Below the pieces are notes generated by a model. The model searched no databases. It worked only from the letters and a program-made list of their open reading frames with translations, and was not told where the DNA came from. 64,000 nt of DNA from positions 11,855 through 75,854 of the forward strand of contig JACPKF010000009.1 in assembly GCA_016187125.1 (NCBI GenBank), in the 5' to 3' direction. Positions within the stretch are counted from its first letter, which is position 1; each line of letters opens with the position of its first letter. The position numbers and the translations under genes are program-made. This DNA is from Candidatus Saccharimonadota bacterium (GTDB lineage: Bacteria > Patescibacteriota > Saccharimonadia > Saccharimonadales > UBA10212). Below, one piece after another: positions 4,424 through 60,704 of the stretch.

Positions 4424-4726
4424 ATGAAATACTCTAAACAGCAAATGGTGGAGTGGCAAGTCCACTTTTTTGTAGGAGTAGCGGAACTGCTGCTACTACT
4501 GCGCGTAGTCTTGCGGTTCTTCAACGGGAACCCCGACGCGACTTTTGTGCACTGGGTTTACACTAATACCCAAGTGTTAATAGAGCCAGTCCGCAATGTC
4601 TTTGTTTCGGCCGGGGTGATAGAGCGCGGCTGGGTAGTAGACTATGTAGCACTGTTCACCATGGCCGTCTATGCTGCCGCTGGCTACTTGCTGATCGGTT
4701 TACTGAACCGCTGGGTCAAGAAATAA
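4424..4726 (+). CDS. YggT-like small membrane protein
   Basis: GGAGGA sits 4 nt upstream of ATG 4424. Two hydrophobic helices and a YggT-like pattern (LRFFNGNP ... EPVR). The track ORF start at 4370 is judged too early. Confidence 0.6.
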   Translation: MKYSKQQMVEWQVHFFVGVAELLLLLRVVLRFFNGNPDATFVHWVYTNTQVLIEPVRNVFVSAGVIERGWVVDYVALFTMAVYAAAGYLLIGLLNRWVKK

Positions 4727-4795
4727 CCAAAACTCGCGCACCGTCCATTTCCCTAAATTCAAAAAGCAACATACAACACGAAATTGAAAATATAA

Positions 4796-6555: not shown

Positions 6556-7896
6556 ATGTTAGATATTCGGTTTATCCGGGAAAATGCCGAAACTGTTGAG
6601 AAAAAGGCTGAACAAAAGGGCTACAAGGTTGATGTTAAGCATCTGCTGGAGCTAGACGATAAACGCCGTAGTTTGCTGTCTGAAATCGAGGAACTACGTG
6701 CAAAGCGTAATGAACTTTCACAATCCGTAAGCGTTTCTCCTAGTCCTTCGCCCGAAGACGGCGACCAAGATATTATGCCTCCGTCTAAGGAATCTATAGC
6801 TGAAGGCAGGCGAATAAAAGAAAAATTGTCCAAGTTTGGGGCTGAGTTGGAGCCAGTAGATAGAAAGTTTTGGGCTCTGTTGAAGGCAGTACCGAACATG
6901 CCGACCAATGACGTACCAGTTGGTACTAGCGAAGCGGACAACATTGTAGCCAAAGAATGGGGCGAAAAACCGAAATTTGATTTTGAACCTAAAACACATT
7001 GGGAAATTGCTGAAGCCCGCGGGCTGATAGATAAAGAAAGAGCCGCCAAAGTAACGGGCAGTCGATTTGCTTATATAAAAGGTGATCTAGTGCGGCTGCA
7101 ATTGGCCATCATGCAGTTTGTTATAGATAGTCTGACAAGTGAGAACACAATCAAAAAAATTATTCAGGAATTTGGGCTCAAAGGCCTCTCGAGTAAACCA
7201 TTTGTGCCTGTCTTGCCGCCGCTGATGATTAGGACTGAAGTTTTCGATGCTATGGATCGTCTGGAACCCAAGAACGAGCGCTATAAAATAGATAGTGAAG
7301 ATTTGTGGCTGCAGGGCAGTGCCGAGCATACGCTGGGACCATTTCATATGGACGAAGTTTTATCAGCTGATGAGCTGCCCATGAGGTATCTCGGTTATGC
7401 CACAAGTTTCCGTCGCGAAGCAGGCACATATGGCAAAGACACCGAAGGTATTATCCGAATGCACCAGTTCGACAAGTTAGAAATGGAAAGCTTCACACTA
7501 CCGGAAGAGGGGGCAAGAGAGCATAAGTTAATGATAGCTATTCAGGAGTATCTGATGCAGCAACTTGAACTTCCATATCACGTGCTAAAGAAGTGTACGG
7601 CTGATATTGGTAAACCCAATGCCAGCGGTGTCGATTTAGAAGTGTGGTTGCAGGGTCATAAACGCTATCTAGAGACACACACTGCTGATTATATGACAGA
7701 TTACCAGACCCGTCGTCTTAATATTAAGGTTAAAAAAATGGATAAAGAGCCGCTGTTCGTTCATACCAACGACGCTACGGCTTTTGCGCTGGGTCGGACT
7801 ATGATTGCCATCATCGAGAATTACCAACAAGCAGACGGCACAGTCCAAATCCCTAAAGCTTTGCAGCCCTACATGCACGGTCAGACTTCTTTTTAG
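6556..7896 (+). CDS. serS: seryl-tRNA synthetase
   Basis: 446 aa with an N-terminal coiled-coil arm and a class II core (e.g. FRREAG). Pro/Ser-rich extra segment (SVSPSPSPEDGDQD) at the arm tip. Confidence 0.93.
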   Translation: MLDIRFIRENAETVEKKAEQKGYKVDVKHLLELDDKRRSLLSEIEELRAKRNELSQSVSVSPSPSPEDGDQDIMPPSKESIAEGRRIKEKLSKFGAELEPVDRKFWALLKAVPNMPTNDVPVGTSEADNIVAKEWGEKPKFDFEPKTHWEIAEARGLIDKERAAKVTGSRFAYIKGDLVRLQLAIMQFVIDSLTSENTIKKIIQEFGLKGLSSKPFVPVLPPLMIRTEVFDAMDRLEPKNERYKIDSEDLWLQGSAEHTLGPFHMDEVLSADELPMRYLGYATSFRREAGTYGKDTEGIIRMHQFDKLEMESFTLPEEGAREHKLMIAIQEYLMQQLELPYHVLKKCTADIGKPNASGVDLEVWLQGHKRYLETHTADYMTDYQTRRLNIKVKKMDKEPLFVHTNDATAFALGRTMIAIIENYQQADGTVQIPKALQPYMHGQTSF

Positions 7897-7932: not shown

Positions 7933-7996
7933 CAGCACGCTAGCACGTAGCCCCTAGTCCATAGCTAAGTGCTAAGAGCTAACAGCTAAGAGCAAT
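7933..7996 (+). repeat. heptamer-periodic array (stop ladder)
   Basis: TAGCACG TAGCCCC TAGTCCA TAGCTAA GTGCTAA GAGCTAA CAGCTAA GAGCAAT in unbroken 7-nt register. Confidence 0.85.
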
Positions 7997-8011
7997 ATTT
8001 TGGAGGTTTTT

Positions 8012-10639
8012 TTGTTAGGATTGAATACTAAAGTTTTAAAACGAATGCTTGGTGACCCTCAGGCGTCGACGATTAAACGCTTAAAAAAACGCGTTCGCGA
8101 AATTAATGCTTTGGCTGATAAGTATAAAAAAATGAGCGATACGCAGCTCAAAGGCCAGACAGCCGAGCTAAAAAAGCGTCTGGAAAAAGGCGGTAGCCTT
8201 GATAAGATTCTACCCGAAGCCTTTGCGGTTGTTCGTGAAGCTTCAACCCGAACTTTAAAACAGCGGCATTTTGACGTCCAGTTAATTGGCGGCATGGTGC
8301 TGCACGAAGGCGGAGTCGCTGAAATGAAAACCGGCGAAGGCAAGACTCTGGTAGCCACGTTGCCGGTTTATCTCAACGGCCTGGAAGGCCAGGGTGTGCA
8401 TATAGTCACAGTTAATGATTATCTGGCGCAGCGTGACGCTGGATGGATGGGCCAAATTTATGACTTTCTGGGCTTGTCCGTAGGAGTAATTATTCCCGAC
8501 CAGTCTTACATATATGATCCTAAATATGAAAACAAAGACCATTTTGATGAACGCTTTTCTCACCTTCGTCCAGCTACTCGCCAAGAGGCCTACCAAGCTG
8601 ATATAACTTATGGCACCAATAACGAGTTCGGCTTTGATTACCTGCGCGATAACATGGTCCGCGAAGTTGACCAATTGCGCCAACGCGATTTGCATTACGC
8701 CATCGTAGACGAAGTCGACTCTATTTTGATTGACGAAGCTCGCACTCCGCTAATTATTAGCGCGCCGTCGGCGGCCAGCGCTACCGCTTACAGCCAATTT
8801 GCTCGAGTTGTTAGGCAGCTTAAGGAAACGCAGCATTACGAGAAAGACGAGAAACGCCGCAGTGTAATCCTGACCGACGCTGGCGTAGAGTTCGTCGAGC
8901 GTATCTTAGGTATCGAAAATCTGTATTCAACTGATAATTTGCGAACCATTTACCACCTTGAGCAAGCCTTAAAAGCTCAGGTTTTGTTTAACCGTGATAA
9001 AGACTACGTGGTGACTAACGAGGGCGAAATCGTCATAGTCGATGATTTTACCGGCCGCCTACTTAAAGGCCGGCGTTATAACGAAGGCCTGCATCAGGCG
9101 ATTGAAGCCAAAGAAGGCGTGGCAGTCCAAGAAGAATCCATGACGCTGGCCACAATTTCTTTCCAAAATTACTTCCGACTTTATAAGAAACTGTCCGGTA
9201 TGACCGGTACGGCCATGACAGAAAGTGAAGAGTTCCATCAAATTTATAAACTTAACGTTGTTGAGGTGCCGACTAATCAGCCCAATATACGTGACGACTT
9301 ACCGGATCGTATTTATAAATCCGAAGCTGGCAAATATAGGGCCATCACGCGCGAGGTCAAAGAACTTAACAAAAAAGGTCAACCAGTACTGCTTGGTACC
9401 GTCAGTGTTGAGAAAAATGAACTGCTGTCGACACTGCTCAAAAAAGCCGACATAACCCATGAAGTTTTGAATGCCAAAAATAACGAACGGGAAGCCGCAA
9501 TTATTGCCAAAGCCGGTCAAAAAGGTGCCGTTACGCTAGCGACTAATATTGCGGGGCGAGGTACTGATATCGTGTTGGGCAAAGGCATAACCGATCTGGG
9601 CGGCTTATTCGTGCTGGGGTCAGAACGCCACGAGTCACGTCGTATTGACAACCAGCTGCGCGGACGTACCGCACGTCAAGGTGATCCTGGAATCACCCAG
9701 TTTTATGTTTCCTGCCAAGATGATTTAATGCGTGTTTACGGCGGTGATAAAATCGCTGGCCTAATGACTAAATTAAGAGTTGATGAAGACACGCCGATCC
9801 AAAGTCGGATGATTACCAAAAGCCTGGAGGGCGCCCAGAAAAAGGTTGAAGGCTTTAACTTTGATATGCGCAAAAATGTTGTGCAATATGACGACGTCAT
9901 GAACCGTCACCGCAAAGCAATTTATGCTATTCGCCGAGAGGTGCTGCGAGCAGAGGATATTAGTCCGCGGATCAAGAAGTTTATAGCCGAAGAAGCCGAA
10001 TTTTTTTCCAACCACCCAGAATCGTTGAGCGAAAGTTTTGAAGCCATTTTAACCGAAGTATTTCCGTTCGAAGACAAAACGCTCGACAAGCTGTTCGACG
10101 CCGAGGCTAGCAAATTCCAAAAATCTCTGCAAGAGGCTGCCAGCCAGCTATATGCCGATCAGGAAAAGCGTTTTGGCAATGAGGTTATGCGTAAAGTCGA
10201 ACGCGATGTCTATCTGCAGATTCTGGACAATTTGTGGATGCAGCACCTGGAAAACATGGATCATCTGCGCGAGGGGATACACTGGATCAGTGTCGGCCAA
10301 CGTGATCCGTTGGTGGAGTATCGTCGCCAATCTCAGCGGATATTTGACGAAATGCAAATGGTGCTGCGGCACGAAATCGTCAGAGCTATCATGCATGCCC
10401 AACCAATTGAGAAGGAGGTCTTAGAAGAAACAGTCGAGACTGATTTAACTCTCGCAGCTCGTGGTTCGGTTGATAACGCCAGTGAAATTTTAAGCGCCGA
10501 AACTTATGAAGAAAGCGACTTCAAATCAGCAAAAAATGAATCCGCCGCGGCGGACCAAGCTAAACTCCATAACCAGCGTAAAAAAGCCCGTAAAGCCGAG
10601 CGCCAACGCAAGAAGTCGGCTAAGCGCCGCAGAAAATAG
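8012..10639 (+). CDS. secA: preprotein translocase ATPase SecA
   Basis: Full-length SecA-like sequence (MKTGEGKT Walker A, DEVDSILIDEARTPLIIS). GGAGG at 8002-8006 favours TTG 8012 over the track start at 8000; the start is uncertain within 8000-8045. Confidence 0.93.
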   Translation: MLGLNTKVLKRMLGDPQASTIKRLKKRVREINALADKYKKMSDTQLKGQTAELKKRLEKGGSLDKILPEAFAVVREASTRTLKQRHFDVQLIGGMVLHEGGVAEMKTGEGKTLVATLPVYLNGLEGQGVHIVTVNDYLAQRDAGWMGQIYDFLGLSVGVIIPDQSYIYDPKYENKDHFDERFSHLRPATRQEAYQADITYGTNNEFGFDYLRDNMVREVDQLRQRDLHYAIVDEVDSILIDEARTPLIISAPSAASATAYSQFARVVRQLKETQHYEKDEKRRSVILTDAGVEFVERILGIENLYSTDNLRTIYHLEQALKAQVLFNRDKDYVVTNEGEIVIVDDFTGRLLKGRRYNEGLHQAIEAKEGVAVQEESMTLATISFQNYFRLYKKLSGMTGTAMTESEEFHQIYKLNVVEVPTNQPNIRDDLPDRIYKSEAGKYRAITREVKELNKKGQPVLLGTVSVEKNELLSTLLKKADITHEVLNAKNNEREAAIIAKAGQKGAVTLATNIAGRGTDIVLGKGITDLGGLFVLGSERHESRRIDNQLRGRTARQGDPGITQFYVSCQDDLMRVYGGDKIAGLMTKLRVDEDTPIQSRMITKSLEGAQKKVEGFNFDMRKNVVQYDDVMNRHRKAIYAIRREVLRAEDISPRIKKFIAEEAEFFSNHPESLSESFEAILTEVFPFEDKTLDKLFDAEASKFQKSLQEAASQLYADQEKRFGNEVMRKVERDVYLQILDNLWMQHLENMDHLREGIHWISVGQRDPLVEYRRQSQRIFDEMQMVLRHEIVRAIMHAQPIEKEVLEETVETDLTLAARGSVDNASEILSAETYEESDFKSAKNESAAADQAKLHNQRKKARKAERQRKKSAKRRRK

Positions 10640-58338: not shown

Positions 58339-59202
58339 TCACTGCAGGGTCCAATGCCCAGCGTCAGCTTTGATGTGGCCATTAATCTCCAGCATGCTCA
58401 GGGCGCTGTTCAGAGCTTGTCCGCTCATGCCGGATCGGGCGGCTAAATCATCCTGGTCATTGACGCCGCCTCTGATGAGATCGAATAAAAGTTGTTCTTC
58501 AGTGGTCCCTTTAAAAACTCTTTTAATGGTTCTGGCTTTAGGCTTAAGATTTAGAGCCAAGAATATATCATCCACATCCCTTACCACCCCTGCTCCGCTG
58601 TTGATTAAATTGTTACAACCTTCGCTCGTCGGGCTGTAAATATTACCGGGCACGGCCATGACAGTCTTGCCCTGCTCTAGCGCGAATCTGGCAGTGTGCA
58701 GACTGCCGCTATTTTTGGCCGCCTCGGTTATAACCAGCACATCGGCTAGTCCGCTGACAATGCGGTTGCGAGCAATAAAATTCTCTTTATAAACCTCAGA
58801 CCCCGGGGGATATTCGCTAACAAGAGCCCCACTACTACTGACGATTTGCTTGGCTAGGTTATGGTGTGCGGCGGGATATATTTTGTCCAGCGGCGCCGGC
58901 AAAACCGCGACAGTACAGCCGCCAACCGATAAGGCCGCGCGGTGAGCAGTGGCGTCTATCCCAAACGCTAAACCGCTGATAATTACCACTCCAGCCCTAG
59001 CTAGCTCACCGGCTAGCCGCTCAGTAACTTGTTTGCCATAAGCAGAAGCCTTACGGCTGCCAACAATAGCTACTTTTGGCTTACTGATAAACTCTTGGGG
59101 TGCAATACCTGTCCAAAAAAGCCAGGCCGGTGGCGAATGAATATGAAGTAGAAGCTCAGGATAATCAGGTTCATTAAGCTTAAGGCTATTGACTTTGCTC
59201 AT
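58339..59202 (-). CDS. dprA: DNA processing protein DprA
   Basis: Rossmann-like DprA core (VAIVGSRKAS, GLAFGIDATAHRAAL) and a C-terminal winged-helix-like tail. Confidence 0.88.
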   Translation of the reverse strand: MSKVNSLKLNEPDYPELLLHIHSPPAWLFWTGIAPQEFISKPKVAIVGSRKASAYGKQVTERLAGELARAGVVIISGLAFGIDATAHRAALSVGGCTVAVLPAPLDKIYPAAHHNLAKQIVSSSGALVSEYPPGSEVYKENFIARNRIVSGLADVLVITEAAKNSGSLHTARFALEQGKTVMAVPGNIYSPTSEGCNNLINSGAGVVRDVDDIFLALNLKPKARTIKRVFKGTTEEQLLFDLIRGGVNDQDDLAARSGMSGQALNSALSMLEINGHIKADAGHWTLQ

Positions 59203-59218
59203 ACAATATTAAAAAGTA

Positions 59219-59247
59219 TTGACATAATGACACTTTTTTGCTAATGT
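59219..59247 (+). promoter_or_regulatory. sigma70-like promoter pointing into the 59.25-59.88 kb noncoding region
   Basis: TTGACA-17 nt-TAATGT. Confidence 0.45.
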
Positions 59248-59376
59248 TGCAACTCATAAGCGTTATTTAATGCTTATGTACCTTATACCCCCAAATTTCC
59301 GGTTGTTCGCCAAGGCGGACGACGGAATAAAATGTTTAAGATTCTAAGGTAAGTTGATACCCTCCACTTGCCCTAG

Positions 59377-59460
59377 TCCCACCCAATTTTTTGGTTTTAA
59401 CTTGAGTATAGTAACCAAATTTAATTAATACAATTGTTTAAGCTTAAAAATTGGGTGGGA
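59377..59460. repeat. CCCACCCAATTT-family element with 15-bp perfect arms
   Basis: TCCCACCCAATTTTT-54 nt-AAAAATTGGGTGGGA. The interior shares ACTTGAGTA with the module at 42076-42133. Confidence 0.85.
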
Positions 59461-59689
59461 AATCTTAAACAACTTATTCCCTTTAACTCCTCGCCCGCAA
59501 AAATTTCTTTGAAATTTCGGCGGGTCCTCAACGTGGGTAGACATGCGAGCTCACGCTCGCGTTCCATCGGGCTTGCCTGGTGGACGGCGCTAGACCTTAG
59601 CTTTTCGCGGGTTATTAGATTGCTTTGTCGATGGTGGGGTTGAAGGGTGTAAATTGGGCTTGATTCGCCAGCTGGCGAATCGAGCCCGC

Positions 59690-59737
59690 AATGAACCTCC
59701 AGCGGTGCCCACCCCCTCTGGAGGTTCATTGTTTTCT
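59690..59737 (+). terminator. terminator-like hairpin
   Basis: AATGAACCTCCAG-15 nt-CTGGAGGTTCATT (13-bp perfect stem) followed by GTTTTCT. Confidence 0.55.
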
Positions 59738-59881
59738 GGTGCCCACCTTCCCGTTATTTTCTGCTGAAAATACGGTCAGGCCCGCCTCGGTGCCGTCGCA
59801 CCTGCGGTTTCCGAACTGCCGCCGGCAGTTCTCACCCTCTGGAGGCTCTTCGTAAGGTTGGTTTTCTACTAGGAAGTTAGC

Positions 59882-59910
59882 TTGACAGTAATTAAATTAA
59901 GTTATACAAT
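59882..59910 (+). promoter_or_regulatory. near-consensus sigma70 promoter; ATG 7 nt after the -10
   Basis: TTGACA-17 nt-TACAAT-ATTAGAC-ATG(59918). Confidence 0.6.
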
Positions 59911-59917
59911 ATTAGAC

Positions 59918-60079
59918 ATGTTTAGTAAGGAAGAGTTGGCAAACATGCCTCTCGAATTTTTCGAGAATGACGGATTCTCAGATCCAGGGCTTATAAACGA
60001 CATCAAAATATTGGCTATGGATCAGGTTGAGCTTGTTTTTGTCGACCCTAACGAGTTGCCCAGAATCAACTTAAAATAG
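59918..60079 (+). CDS. 53-aa acidic small protein, probably leaderless
   Basis: Encodes MFSKEELANMPLEFFENDGFSDPG... The ORF starts at the predicted transcription start. Its 3' end overlaps the pth stop by 14 nt (convergent). Confidence 0.4.
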   Translation: MFSKEELANMPLEFFENDGFSDPGLINDIKILAMDQVELVFVDPNELPRINLK

Positions 60080-60704
60080 TGCGGGTGTCGTGAGGGAGTT
60101 GGCCGCTGTAGATGTATTCGGTAATCAGATTGCTGGCTTCGCTCAAAATGAGTGGCAAGTTGCCCTGCTCTTCTTTAGTGAATTTGCTGAGCACGAAATC
60201 GCTGGCGTCAGCCTTTTCGGAGATTTCGTTGCCAATGCCGATACGCAGGCGGCCAAAGTCTTCGCCGATATGTTGGATCAGTGACTTTACGCCGTTGTGA
60301 CCGGCGTCCCCGCCCCCTACCCTTGTTCTAAGTTGTCCAAACGGAATTGCTAGCTCGTCGTAAATCACCAGAGTTGAGAGGTTGTAGACGCGGTAGAACT
60401 TCTGTACGGCGCTGGTGGCTTGGCCGCTCAAGTTCATAAAGGTAGCCGGTTTAGCTAAAATTACTCGATTTTCACCCAGAGTTTTTACGCTAAGCTCAAC
60501 CTTGAGATCCTTTTTTGATATCCACGCTGGAAAATTATTATTCCGGGCAAATTCCTCAATTACCGAAAAACCTATGTTATGCCGCGTCCCAACGTATTCT
60601 TTTCCCGGATTGCCTAGACCGATTATCAACACATTCTTGTTAGTGCCTAGCGTATAAAGCGGCAATTTAGAAGTCTCTTGCGGATTTTTTTGAAACAAAG
60701 CCAT
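60066..60704 (-). CDS. pth: peptidyl-tRNA hydrolase
   Basis: GLGNPG ... Y ... TRHNIGF N-terminal motif and GHNG. Confidence 0.92.
   Translation of the reverse strand: MALFQKNPQETSKLPLYTLGTNKNVLIIGLGNPGKEYVGTRHNIGFSVIEEFARNNNFPAWISKKDLKVELSVKTLGENRVILAKPATFMNLSGQATSAVQKFYRVYNLSTLVIYDELAIPFGQLRTRVGGGDAGHNGVKSLIQHIGEDFGRLRIGIGNEISEKADASDFVLSKFTKEEQGNLPLILSEASNLITEYIYSGQLPHDTRTILS

Follow-up and report, generated by a model that had tools for sequence, protein, structure and literature searches.

A Putative Clade-Wide Structured RNA beside pth in Saccharibacteria, and Copies of Its Terminal Loop in Viral Contigs

Introduction

What occupies the 860-nt gap between dprA (58339-59202, minus strand) and pth (60066-60704, minus strand) in the genome of a member of the Saccharimonadales (Saccharibacteria/TM7, Candidate Phyla Radiation, CPR)? 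In the 64-kb stretch of this genome analyzed here, hereafter the window, a preliminary description had proposed for the interval 59219-59880 a candidate structured RNA of a new kind, transcribed from a promoter of its own and ended by a terminator. Our comparative analysis makes it near-certain that the region encodes a separate, independently transcribed structured non-coding RNA, and we are equally confident of its general architecture. In the window this RNA is antisense to pth, dprA and topA. What it does is a second question, for which copies of its terminal loop in viral contigs provide the main lead.

Results

A Conserved Gene with Its Own Promoter and Terminator

Eighty genome loci of ~12 kb were gathered via Pth homologues, so that host genomes were sampled around this locus, in addition to the 64-kb window. 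A profile of the region matches 55 of the 80 end to end (E 1e-40 to 1e-90), in each case directly beside pth in a Saccharimonadia genome; the unmatched loci are either cut by contig ends or do not belong to Saccharibacteria. An nhmmer profile of 53 homologues aligns end to end with window positions 59248-59735 (E 2.6e-65), and full-length homologues measure 327-501 nt. A metagenome scan with the 17-mer of the terminal loop, GCGGUGCCCACCCCCUC, yielded 120 loci, ~83 of which carry the RNA (65 full-length, 16 cut by a contig end, 2 as split matches), while ~24 are chance coding matches on contigs of 57-76% GC. No second copy of the RNA was found in the 64-kb window. The helix PL2, the block S4, the junction strands and both loops (Table 1) do not vary between genomes in which the Pth proteins share only about 45-55% identity. 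Judged by these comparisons, the putative RNA family is conserved throughout Saccharibacteria, has not been catalogued before and, for the loci sampled and the 64-kb window, is single-copy at the pth locus.

Six loci (L013, L029, L043, L068, L072, L073) hold a Saccharibacteria-type pth in bins labelled Babeliales, Binatia, Limnocylindrales, Dehalococcoidia and others. These contigs are probably mis-binned, and at least L013, L029 and L043 carry the RNA too.

The promoter and the terminator are present as the preliminary description had given them. A promoter of the form TTGAC[AT]-17-TA[AGT]AAT, preceded by TTTGC, stands before nearly all of the 55 homologues. The terminator shows the intrinsic pattern of a GC-rich stem followed by a U-tract on the plus strand, with an atypically long loop of 15 nt; its stem covaries and its U-run is conserved. 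A generic consensus scan called neither signal, the -10 box having 3/6 matches and the loop exceeding 8 nt, so that the reality of both rests on their conservation. The predicted ends of the RNA lie within about 59249-59256 (5') and in the U-tract at 59731-59737 (3').

In 45 host terminal hairpins, read on the plus strand, the stem holds 12 G.T and 0 A.C mismatches; because the wobble pairs are G.U on the plus strand only, this is the transcribed one. The fold of 59250-59745 on this strand reaches -211 kcal/mol, with z = -10.9 against dinucleotide shuffles (minus strand, z = -7.0). The earlier statement that the region contains no credible open reading frame (ORF) holds in part: ORFs of 69 and 102 aa do overlap it, but its conservation pattern is unlike that of coding sequence. 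Paired columns covary, and insertions vary in length.

A shorter form, which we call group 2, occurs in animal-associated Saccharibacteria (L069-L071, L086-L094) as an RNA of ~305-315 nt with the same block order. Its PL2 strands are CCCUUUAAAC/GUUUAAAGGG or CCCUAUAAC/GUUGUAGGG, a U-A to A-U swap, its terminal loop UGAUGCCCACCCUUA sits on covarying stems, and its S2 loop is UAUUACCUCC. In group-2 loci pth, the RNA and topA follow in this order, all co-directional. The RNA gene has thus been flipped in place relative to pth and topA, which argues for a self-contained transcription unit and against a leader or antisense element of a neighbour.

Could there be no functional RNA at all, the hairpins being palindromic DNA repeats akin to repetitive extragenic palindromes, or a leader or antisense element that acts in cis on dprA or pth? 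The density of hairpins, the lineage-specificity of the inserted ones and the necessary overlap of the dprA promoter with the region's 5' end would fit such a view. However, the long-range helices covary, the wobble pairs are strand-specific, promoter and terminator are conserved on one strand, the 64-kb window holds one copy, and the orientation relative to the neighbours changes in group 2, all of which makes this explanation highly improbable.

Known RNA Families

Rfam 15 in gathering mode gave no match over the whole 64-kb window, and ARAGORN called no tRNA or transfer-messenger RNA (tmRNA) gene there. At E<=10, over 59100-60100, Rfam returned only meaningless matches of the microRNA hairpin type. 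The group-2 form was likewise without an Rfam match, at gathering score in 11 loci and at E<=10 in a group-2 locus, and our literature searches found no description of the RNA. We rate the RNA, on the strength of these searches, as a new family that matches no catalogued one. The preliminary description had suggested Rfam and tmRNA scanners together with homology and covariation searches as checks, and had named a scanner match or a lack of conservation as outcomes that would undo its proposal. Neither occurred: the scanners stayed silent, homologues exist in 55 genomes and ~83 metagenome contigs, and their helices show compensatory changes.

Size (330-500 nt), a strong promoter, long-range helices and clade-wide conservation are all reminiscent of housekeeping RNAs, which raises the possibility of a universal RNA (RNase P RNA, tmRNA, 6S RNA or signal recognition particle (SRP) RNA) too diverged for standard models. 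CPR RNase P RNAs can indeed score below model thresholds; lowered cmsearch thresholds nevertheless recovered them (Lui et al., 2021, PMC8172020), whereas nothing appears here at E<=10 in 1 kb. The preliminary description had seen no signature of these four RNAs, in agreement with the lack of any covariance-model match even at this threshold. For RNase P RNA (RF00010/RF00011) the models match neither at E<=10 (59100-60100 and the group-2 locus) nor at gathering score (the window and 11 loci), and neither of the P4 strands, GAGGAAAGUCC and ACAGAAnnCGGCUUA, occurs in the window sequence or in the family consensus of 405 columns. A tmRNA would have a tag reading frame and a tRNA-like acceptor/T-arm ending in CCA; the latter is lacking, and the 3' end is an intrinsic terminator hairpin with its U-tract. 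6S RNA is a rod of ~180 nt with a large central bubble; the consensus here is branched and has two domains. Nor did we find the domain IV hairpin of 4.5S or large SRP RNA, with its GNAR loop and symmetric loop. To a diverged universal RNA we accordingly give very little credence.

Two further resemblances were pursued and dropped. The T-box motif AGGGUGGNACCGCG has a look-alike, GGGGGUGGGCACCGC, on the minus strand only, in the reverse complement of the terminal loop, whereas wobble pairs, promoter and U-tract put the RNA on the plus strand, and no T-box model matched on either strand. The terminal loop has short similarities to 5S rRNA and the 3' end of 16S rRNA (GCGGUG..CCCACC..CCC); no 5S or small-subunit model matched, and we treat the likeness as coincidence. 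With RNAs of the 6C and RsaE type the RNA shares C-rich apical loops, UGUUACCCUCC and GCGGUGCCCACCCCCUC, both invariant. Membership is contradicted by the lack of a match at E<=10 and by a length of 327-501 nt with long-range helices, unlike these small RNAs of two or three hairpins.

Architecture and Covariation

The 405 columns of the consensus form a fixed series of blocks, into which variable hairpins are inserted at fixed sites. The 5' part consists of UGCAA, hp1, the S1 block GnACCUUAUACCCCCA, an optional hairpin, the PL1 5' strand GUUAGAUUGUUUAAGAG, the S2 hairpin with loop UGUUACCCUCC, and variable inserts; the 3' part of the PL1 3' strand CUCUnAAACAAACUAAC, the PL2 5' strand CCCUUUAACU, a multi-hairpin junction, GGUGG-GUUGAAGGG-UGU, an optional hairpin, the terminal hairpin with loop GCGGUGCCCACCCCCUC, and the U-run. 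Every family block is present in the window RNA, in the order hp1-S1-PL1-S2 loop-PL1'-PL2-junction-GGUG-PL2'-terminal hairpin, the last with the loop UGCCCACCC.

Structures were derived with RNAalifold from a tool-made alignment of 56 3' domains and from a second, full-length alignment; cells in which both sides of a pair are altered were counted as double changes and compared with a control in which the partner was slid by 1-3 columns. PL1 is 96% canonical over 17 aligned pairs, with 72 double-change cells against at most 14 after sliding; in the window it differs from the consensus by compensatory changes, and the group-2 RNAs keep the helix with unrelated sequence. PL2 is 99% canonical and near-invariant in group 1, its last C-G pair being replaced by G-C or A-U in 6-7 sequences. 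Helix Pd (91% canonical) has 42 double changes against at most 15, and the terminal stem (95% canonical, full-length alignment) 137 against at most 36. In the latter stem, nine of ten outer pairs are changed on both sides in 5-26 of the 56 sequences around a loop that does not vary, the most conserved element of the RNA. The S2 stem behaves similarly: 92% of its pairs are canonical and the outer ones covary, while the loop is invariant. S1 is less constant, its C-run being lost in a few lineages (L038, L062, L063 and group 2).

In the predicted structure two long-range helices, PL1 and PL2, neither of which figured in the preliminary description, define the conserved core, and each closes one of its two domains. 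No linker separates the abutting helices, which can therefore stack, with the 5' arm and the 3' terminal hairpin both exiting at one point. MAFFT misaligns two clades at the junction (59528-59632), whose structure is accordingly resolved in part. All hairpins and other elements named in the preliminary description were found at, or within 1-2 nt of, the positions it gave. Its strong hairpins are all real features of the sequence; two of them (59377-59460 and 59656-59687), together with the hairpin at 59297-59327, are, however, lineage-specific insertions outside the conserved core, and at the site of 59377-59460 the insertion measures between 0 and >100 nt across homologues.

Within the terminal loop, the inner pairs G59704-C59716 and G59705-C59715 are predicted with a probability of 0.89, which would give a bulged helix with an apical CCCACC. 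The S4 sequence GGUGGG (59633-38) is the exact complement of this apex, with a predicted duplex energy of -14 to -15 kcal/mol, and we infer from this model that S4 may pair with the terminal loop within the RNA. Two other pairings are not claimed: a GCA/UGU helix between the 5' and 3' ends, proposed by RNAalifold, is without a single compensatory change and breaks down in several lineages, and an alternative pairing of S1 with GGGUGUAA is possible in many sequences, but S1 is missing from some lineages.

Table 1. Predicted elements of the putative RNA gene and of the adjoining tail (window positions)
Element	Position	Strand	Remarks
RNA gene, whole	~59248-59737	+	~485 nt; from profile match and fold z
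Promoter	59219-59247	+	-35 TTGACA (59219-59224), 17-nt spacer ending TGC, -10 TAATGT (59242-59247)
hp1, 5' hairpin	59255-59278	+	CAUAAGC/GCUUAUG; in all homologues, stem and loop sequences differ; ~90% canonical at stem base
S1, conserved single-stranded block	59279-59295	+	UACCUUAUACCCCCAAA; consensus GnACCUUAUACCCCCA
Lineage-specific hairpin	59297-59327	+	In place of the UCUAAC...GUUAGA hairpin of most relatives
PL1, 5' strand / 3' strand	59326-59343 / 59461-59478	+	Long-range helix
S2 hairpin	stem 59348-54/59366-72	+	C-rich loop UGAUACCCUCC (consensus UGUUACCCUCC; group 2 UAUUACCUCC)
Extension hairpin, domain 1	59377-59460	+	84 nt, AT-rich; clade-specific, missing from many homologues
PL2, 5' strand / 3' strand	59479-59488 / 59638-59647	+	5' strand CCCUUUAACU; long-range helix directly after PL1
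hpV, variable hairpin, domain 2	59492-59526	+	Most homologues have one, sequences unrelated
G-rich block	59533-59538	+	GUGGGU; clade-specific
Two junction hairpins	59545-59560, 59564-59583	+	First: GCGAGC-UCAC-GCUCGC (UCAC loop); pairs 59545-47/59556-58 covary
Helix Pd with hairpin	59586-59624	+	GGC 59586-88/GCU 59622-24; CUA 59590-92/UAG 59616-18
Invariant block	59633-59650	+	GGUGG-GGUUGAAGGG-UGU; S4 GGUGGG 59633-38; PL2 3' strand 59638-47
Optional hairpin	59656-59687	+	14-bp stem; 0-86 nt in homologues, missing in about half
Terminal hairpin	59690-59730	+	13-bp stem 59690-59702/59718-59730; invariant 17-mer GCGGUGCCCACCCCCUC = 59702-59718
U-tract, intrinsic termination	59731-59737	+	GUUUUCU; U-run after hairpin in nearly all host homologues
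Tail element	59738-59856	+	GGUGCCCACC, three hairpins (~59751-75, 59790-59808, 59813-31), CUCACCCUCUGGAGGCUCUUCG

The Tail Element and the Space before pth

The interval 59219-59880 had been presented as one unit. This is correct up to ~59737, where the conserved RNA ends; 59738-59880 falls outside it and contains a separate tail element. The repeated words that had been reported are there, GGTGCCCACC at 59704-59713 and 59738-59747 and CCCTCTGGAGG at 59714-59724 and 59835-59845, in each case once in the terminal hairpin and once in the tail. The latter looks like a terminal-loop module that is split by a structured insertion of ~95 nt and has no 5' stem arm of its own. Its layout, GGUGCCCA followed by three hairpins and CUCACCCUCUGGAGGCUCU, is kept in L045, L048, L194, L226 and L241, with different hairpin sequences. 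As read from the alignment, the first terminal stem has in each genome a 5' arm to which the 3' arm of the tail is complementary; L226 has CCCCCGG/CCGGGGG, for instance, and the window CCUCCAG/CUGGAGG. That this complementarity is kept suggests a read-through isoform, in which the tail may provide an alternative closing helix.

Partial or variant copies of the terminal hairpin also stand just downstream of the RNA in L036 (~6693-6744, for instance GACCU-GGUGCCCACCCCCUCU-GGAGGUC) and L052. Between the tail and pth, within 59882-60079, a TTGACA-17-TACAAT promoter (11/12 matches) lies 8 nt upstream of an ATG at 59919, which would open a leaderless ORF of 53 codons (MFSKEELANMPLEFF...). This ORF has no tblastn homologue in the ~290 loci searched.

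Copies of the Terminal Loop in Viral Contigs

In a search of IMG/VR for the exact 17-mer, the terminal loop was found in 53 viral contigs, many of them 35-55 kb long, as compared to 1 for a reversed 17-mer. Of the 54 copies, 52 form hairpin loops, on stems that are unrelated between contigs; 41 copies lie between genes, and a U-run comes after only 8. With the exception of the contig L139 they match no more than the last 25-50 nt of the RNA. G.U outnumber A.C mismatches in the viral stems by 42:15, and 45 of 50 copies lie within 300 nt of ORFs on the same strand, often 7-25 nt past a stop codon. The neighbouring ORFs include terminase, capsid, amidase, methylase, HNH and RecT genes, and some copies are found in or near tRNA arrays or between structural genes. 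Other conserved words of the RNA are not enriched: an S2 16-mer gave 24 phage matches, mostly in one low-GC gene family in antisense with others scattered, and an S4 17-mer gave 5, which apart from L139 are coding or chance matches. What is portable is thus only the terminal loop, whatever the stem beneath it.

A recurrent arrangement is seen in seven contigs (L100, L104, L113, L119, L127, L128, L130), where a stop codon is followed by the loop hairpin, a second hairpin, CCAGC-UUU-GCUGG, then CCAAUAGAACAAAUCUAAAGGAG and an ATG (MATNA...), with AAGGAG before the ATG; the arrangement probably represents the 5' region of a structural gene with high expression. In L101 (8661-12020; IMGVR_UViG_3300047496_000268) the loop hairpin lies ~450 nt upstream of a 75-nt match to the tmRNA model, covering the tRNA-like part only, and of an array of 17 tRNAs, and in L116 and L117 it stands between two tRNA-like sequences that Rfam does not call. 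Hairpins resembling S2, with the loop GUUGUUACCCUCCACU, occur in L276 (~1925-1994), L290 (~9391-9460) and L278 (~4690-4764), in the first two just upstream of AAAGGAG-ATG; these are too few to separate from chance. The phage terminases are at most 47% identical to those of Flavobacterium phages and thus uninformative as to the host.

The viral contig L139 (38 kb) is a case of its own, as it contains a complete RNA gene with promoter at 7942-8370 (plus strand), adjoining RecT, exonuclease/FtsK-like and methyltransferase genes. A second, stand-alone loop hairpin lies inverted at 6863-6879 (minus strand), ~1.1 kb away. Either L139 spans a prophage junction, or the phage itself carries a copy of the RNA.

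Do phages integrate at the 3' end of the RNA gene, such that the viral copies are the cores of phage attachment (attP) sites and the split copy in the tail is a scar? Host gene and phages do share an exact identity of 17 nt, further partial copies follow closely after the RNA in the window, L036, L045, L048 and L052, and the symmetric stem-loop recalls the anticodon-loop sites used among tRNA/tmRNA integration sublocations. We predicted this identity at first, and neither the ORF scan, nor the stem comparison, nor the orientation of the copies in L139 bore it out. No integrase was found among 16 ORFs scanned, 10 adjoining the motif and 6 of L139. The identity is confined to the loop, only 3 of 53 phage stems being identical to any of 120 host stems, so that integration would not restore the host hairpin. 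Copies between tRNA genes or between structural genes, the inverted rather than direct arrangement in L139, and a tail architecture conserved across six distant genomes, unlike a scar, also speak against integration, which we regard as improbable.

Discussion

What can be proposed for the function of this RNA? The explanation to which we give slightly more belief than doubt joins an independent, clade-wide RNA gene to a docking role, with phages using the same hairpin. The RNA would be a stable, abundant, trans-acting scaffold or a sponge-type RNA, whose terminal hairpin would both terminate transcription and display a rigid apical element, the bulged helix with its CCCACC cap. This element would dock to a conserved partner, be it a cellular protein, a G-rich RNA or the GGUGGG of the RNA itself, and phage transcripts would carry the same hairpin to reach or titrate that partner. 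The breadth of invariance points in this direction, being typical of an RNA with a conserved macromolecular partner and untypical of a small RNA (sRNA) of the seed type. The docking or mimicry mechanism itself is a hypothesis, at most moderately supported.

The main rival is a base-pairing regulatory RNA resembling 6C, RsaE/RoxS or RNAIII, whose exposed C-rich loops, ACCCUCC and CCCACCCCCUC, would control the translation or stability of mRNAs by pairing with their G-rich or Shine-Dalgarno (SD)-like sites; the CCCACCCCCUC loop sits in the terminator hairpin, and the hairpins of phages would represent the seed acting in cis or in trans. Two invariant C-rich apical loops, one of them on the terminator hairpin as in H14 of RNAIII, are what such an RNA would show; the group-2 S2 loop is ACCUCC, the anti-SD core, and phage genes downstream of the hairpin have strong AAGGAG sites. 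The host, however, seems to offer few targets. An SD-like word precedes only ~17 of 50 long ORFs in the window, and many starts without one have a TAnnnT box resembling a -10 element 5-8 nt upstream (for example 5042, 12168, 13712, 33185, 47839, 49930 on the minus strand, and 51952), which suggests that most mRNAs of this genome are leaderless. Apart from the gene itself, the 64-kb window contains no extended complement to either loop. Together these two observations weaken SD masking in the manner of 6C, RsaE or RNAIII. Size, long-range helices and the invariance outside the loops far exceed the needs of a seed-type sRNA, and the Rfam models of 6C, RsaE and RNAIII do not match even at E<=10. 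On balance, a base-pairing regulator appears unlikely, if less so than the other rivals.

A more speculative extension, to which we assign a still lower likelihood, would make the RNA a hub in phage-host conflict in Saccharibacteria. The terminal loop, or its GGUGGG receptor, would be the point recognized by a cellular machine for the control of RNA fate or translation, and phages would place the loop at the ends of cistrons and in tRNA arrays, where processing would free the hairpin, in order to recruit the host machine or to disable the host RNA with decoys. In a sharper version, an abundant RNA with anti-SD-like loops would discriminate against SD-led messages, such as those of phages, in a mostly leaderless host, and the phage hairpins would counteract this discrimination.

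Several points weigh against the docking account. Only L139 physically links a viral contig to a full copy of the RNA. As host chromosomes were sampled at the locus and in the 64-kb window, stand-alone hairpins may exist elsewhere in them, in which case the loop module could serve as a general signal and not mimic the RNA; the viral search covered exact copies of the 17-mer. Both sides of the proposed pairing of S4 with the loop are invariant, and covariation thus lends it no support. Finally, the assignment of group 2 to the family rests on block order, synteny and weak profile matches (E 7.5e-4 to 5e-3).

The genomes of Saccharibacteria and other CPR bacteria are tiny and have little room for dispensable genes, yet an RNA of 330-500 nt has been kept, its promoter close to consensus and its sequence blocks equal in invariance to those in tmRNA or RNase P RNA. 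As a new structured RNA of the whole clade it would extend the short list of large bacterial non-coding RNAs and would point to a cellular process so far undescribed in this group. The phage link offers practical means as well: a 17-nt loop placed on any stem would be a ready bait for the partner, and the phage copies are natural context 'mutants'. Some Saccharibacteria can be cultivated and are genetically tractable, and the shorter form of the RNA appears to be present in their lineage. The 17-mer is, moreover, a marker that pulls the loci of Saccharibacteria and of their candidate phages straight from metagenomes.

Comparison with Known Systems

How does this RNA compare to those already described? 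Alike in host and circumstance is the CPR RNase P RNA, from the same lineage, similar in size and likewise missed by standard annotation (Lui et al., 2021, PMC8172020); it has kept its core features and scores with covariance models at lowered thresholds, neither of which holds for the RNA described here. 6C RNA of Actinobacteria (RF01066) and RsaE/RoxS of Firmicutes are also stand-alone genes with C-rich apical loops, one of them on or next to the terminator. They are, however, RNAs of 60-110 nt with two or three hairpins that pair with G-rich mRNA sites, whereas the present RNA has 330-500 nt, two domains with long-range helices and many other invariant strands, in a host that is apparently largely leaderless. 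RNAIII of S. aureus, a regulatory RNA, is alike in form, with ~500 nt, many hairpins, long-range helices delimiting domains, and C-rich loops including that of the terminator hairpin. It encodes delta-haemolysin, is restricted to staphylococci and evolves fast, while the RNA of Saccharibacteria shares neither sequence nor model similarity with it and has no conserved ORF.

In scale and distribution, hundreds of nucleotides of intricate conserved structure throughout a clade, the RNA resembles OLE, raiA, ROOL, GOLLD and HEARO, large bacterial RNAs whose roles are obscure or were worked out only lately; of these, ROOL and GOLLD are found in phages too, frequently close to tRNA genes. It differs from all of them in having no Rfam match, and in that phages carry a single hairpin module, the whole RNA being found only in L139. 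The short exact identity between phage genomes and the 3' part of a host RNA gene is shared with tRNA and tmRNA integration sites, from which the present case is set apart by the lack of an adjoining integrase, by unrelated stems and by copies inside operons and tRNA arrays.

The proposed logic is that of the CsrB/RsmZ and 6S RNA sponges, where an abundant RNA displays a hairpin-loop motif of mRNAs, or mimics a nucleic acid, to bind a protein. In the Csr sponges the motif is repeated many times; here there is one copy, or two with the tail, and neither GGA motifs nor a 6S-like rod are present. As for the phage side, the nearest parallels are pseudo-ToxI, RNA anti-CRISPRs and AgvB, in which a phage carries a short structured copy of a host RNA element. 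In these systems the function of the host RNA is established, as antitoxin, CRISPR RNA repeat or sRNA target; in Saccharibacteria the phage copies of the terminal loop would be either decoys of the host RNA or users of the same partner.

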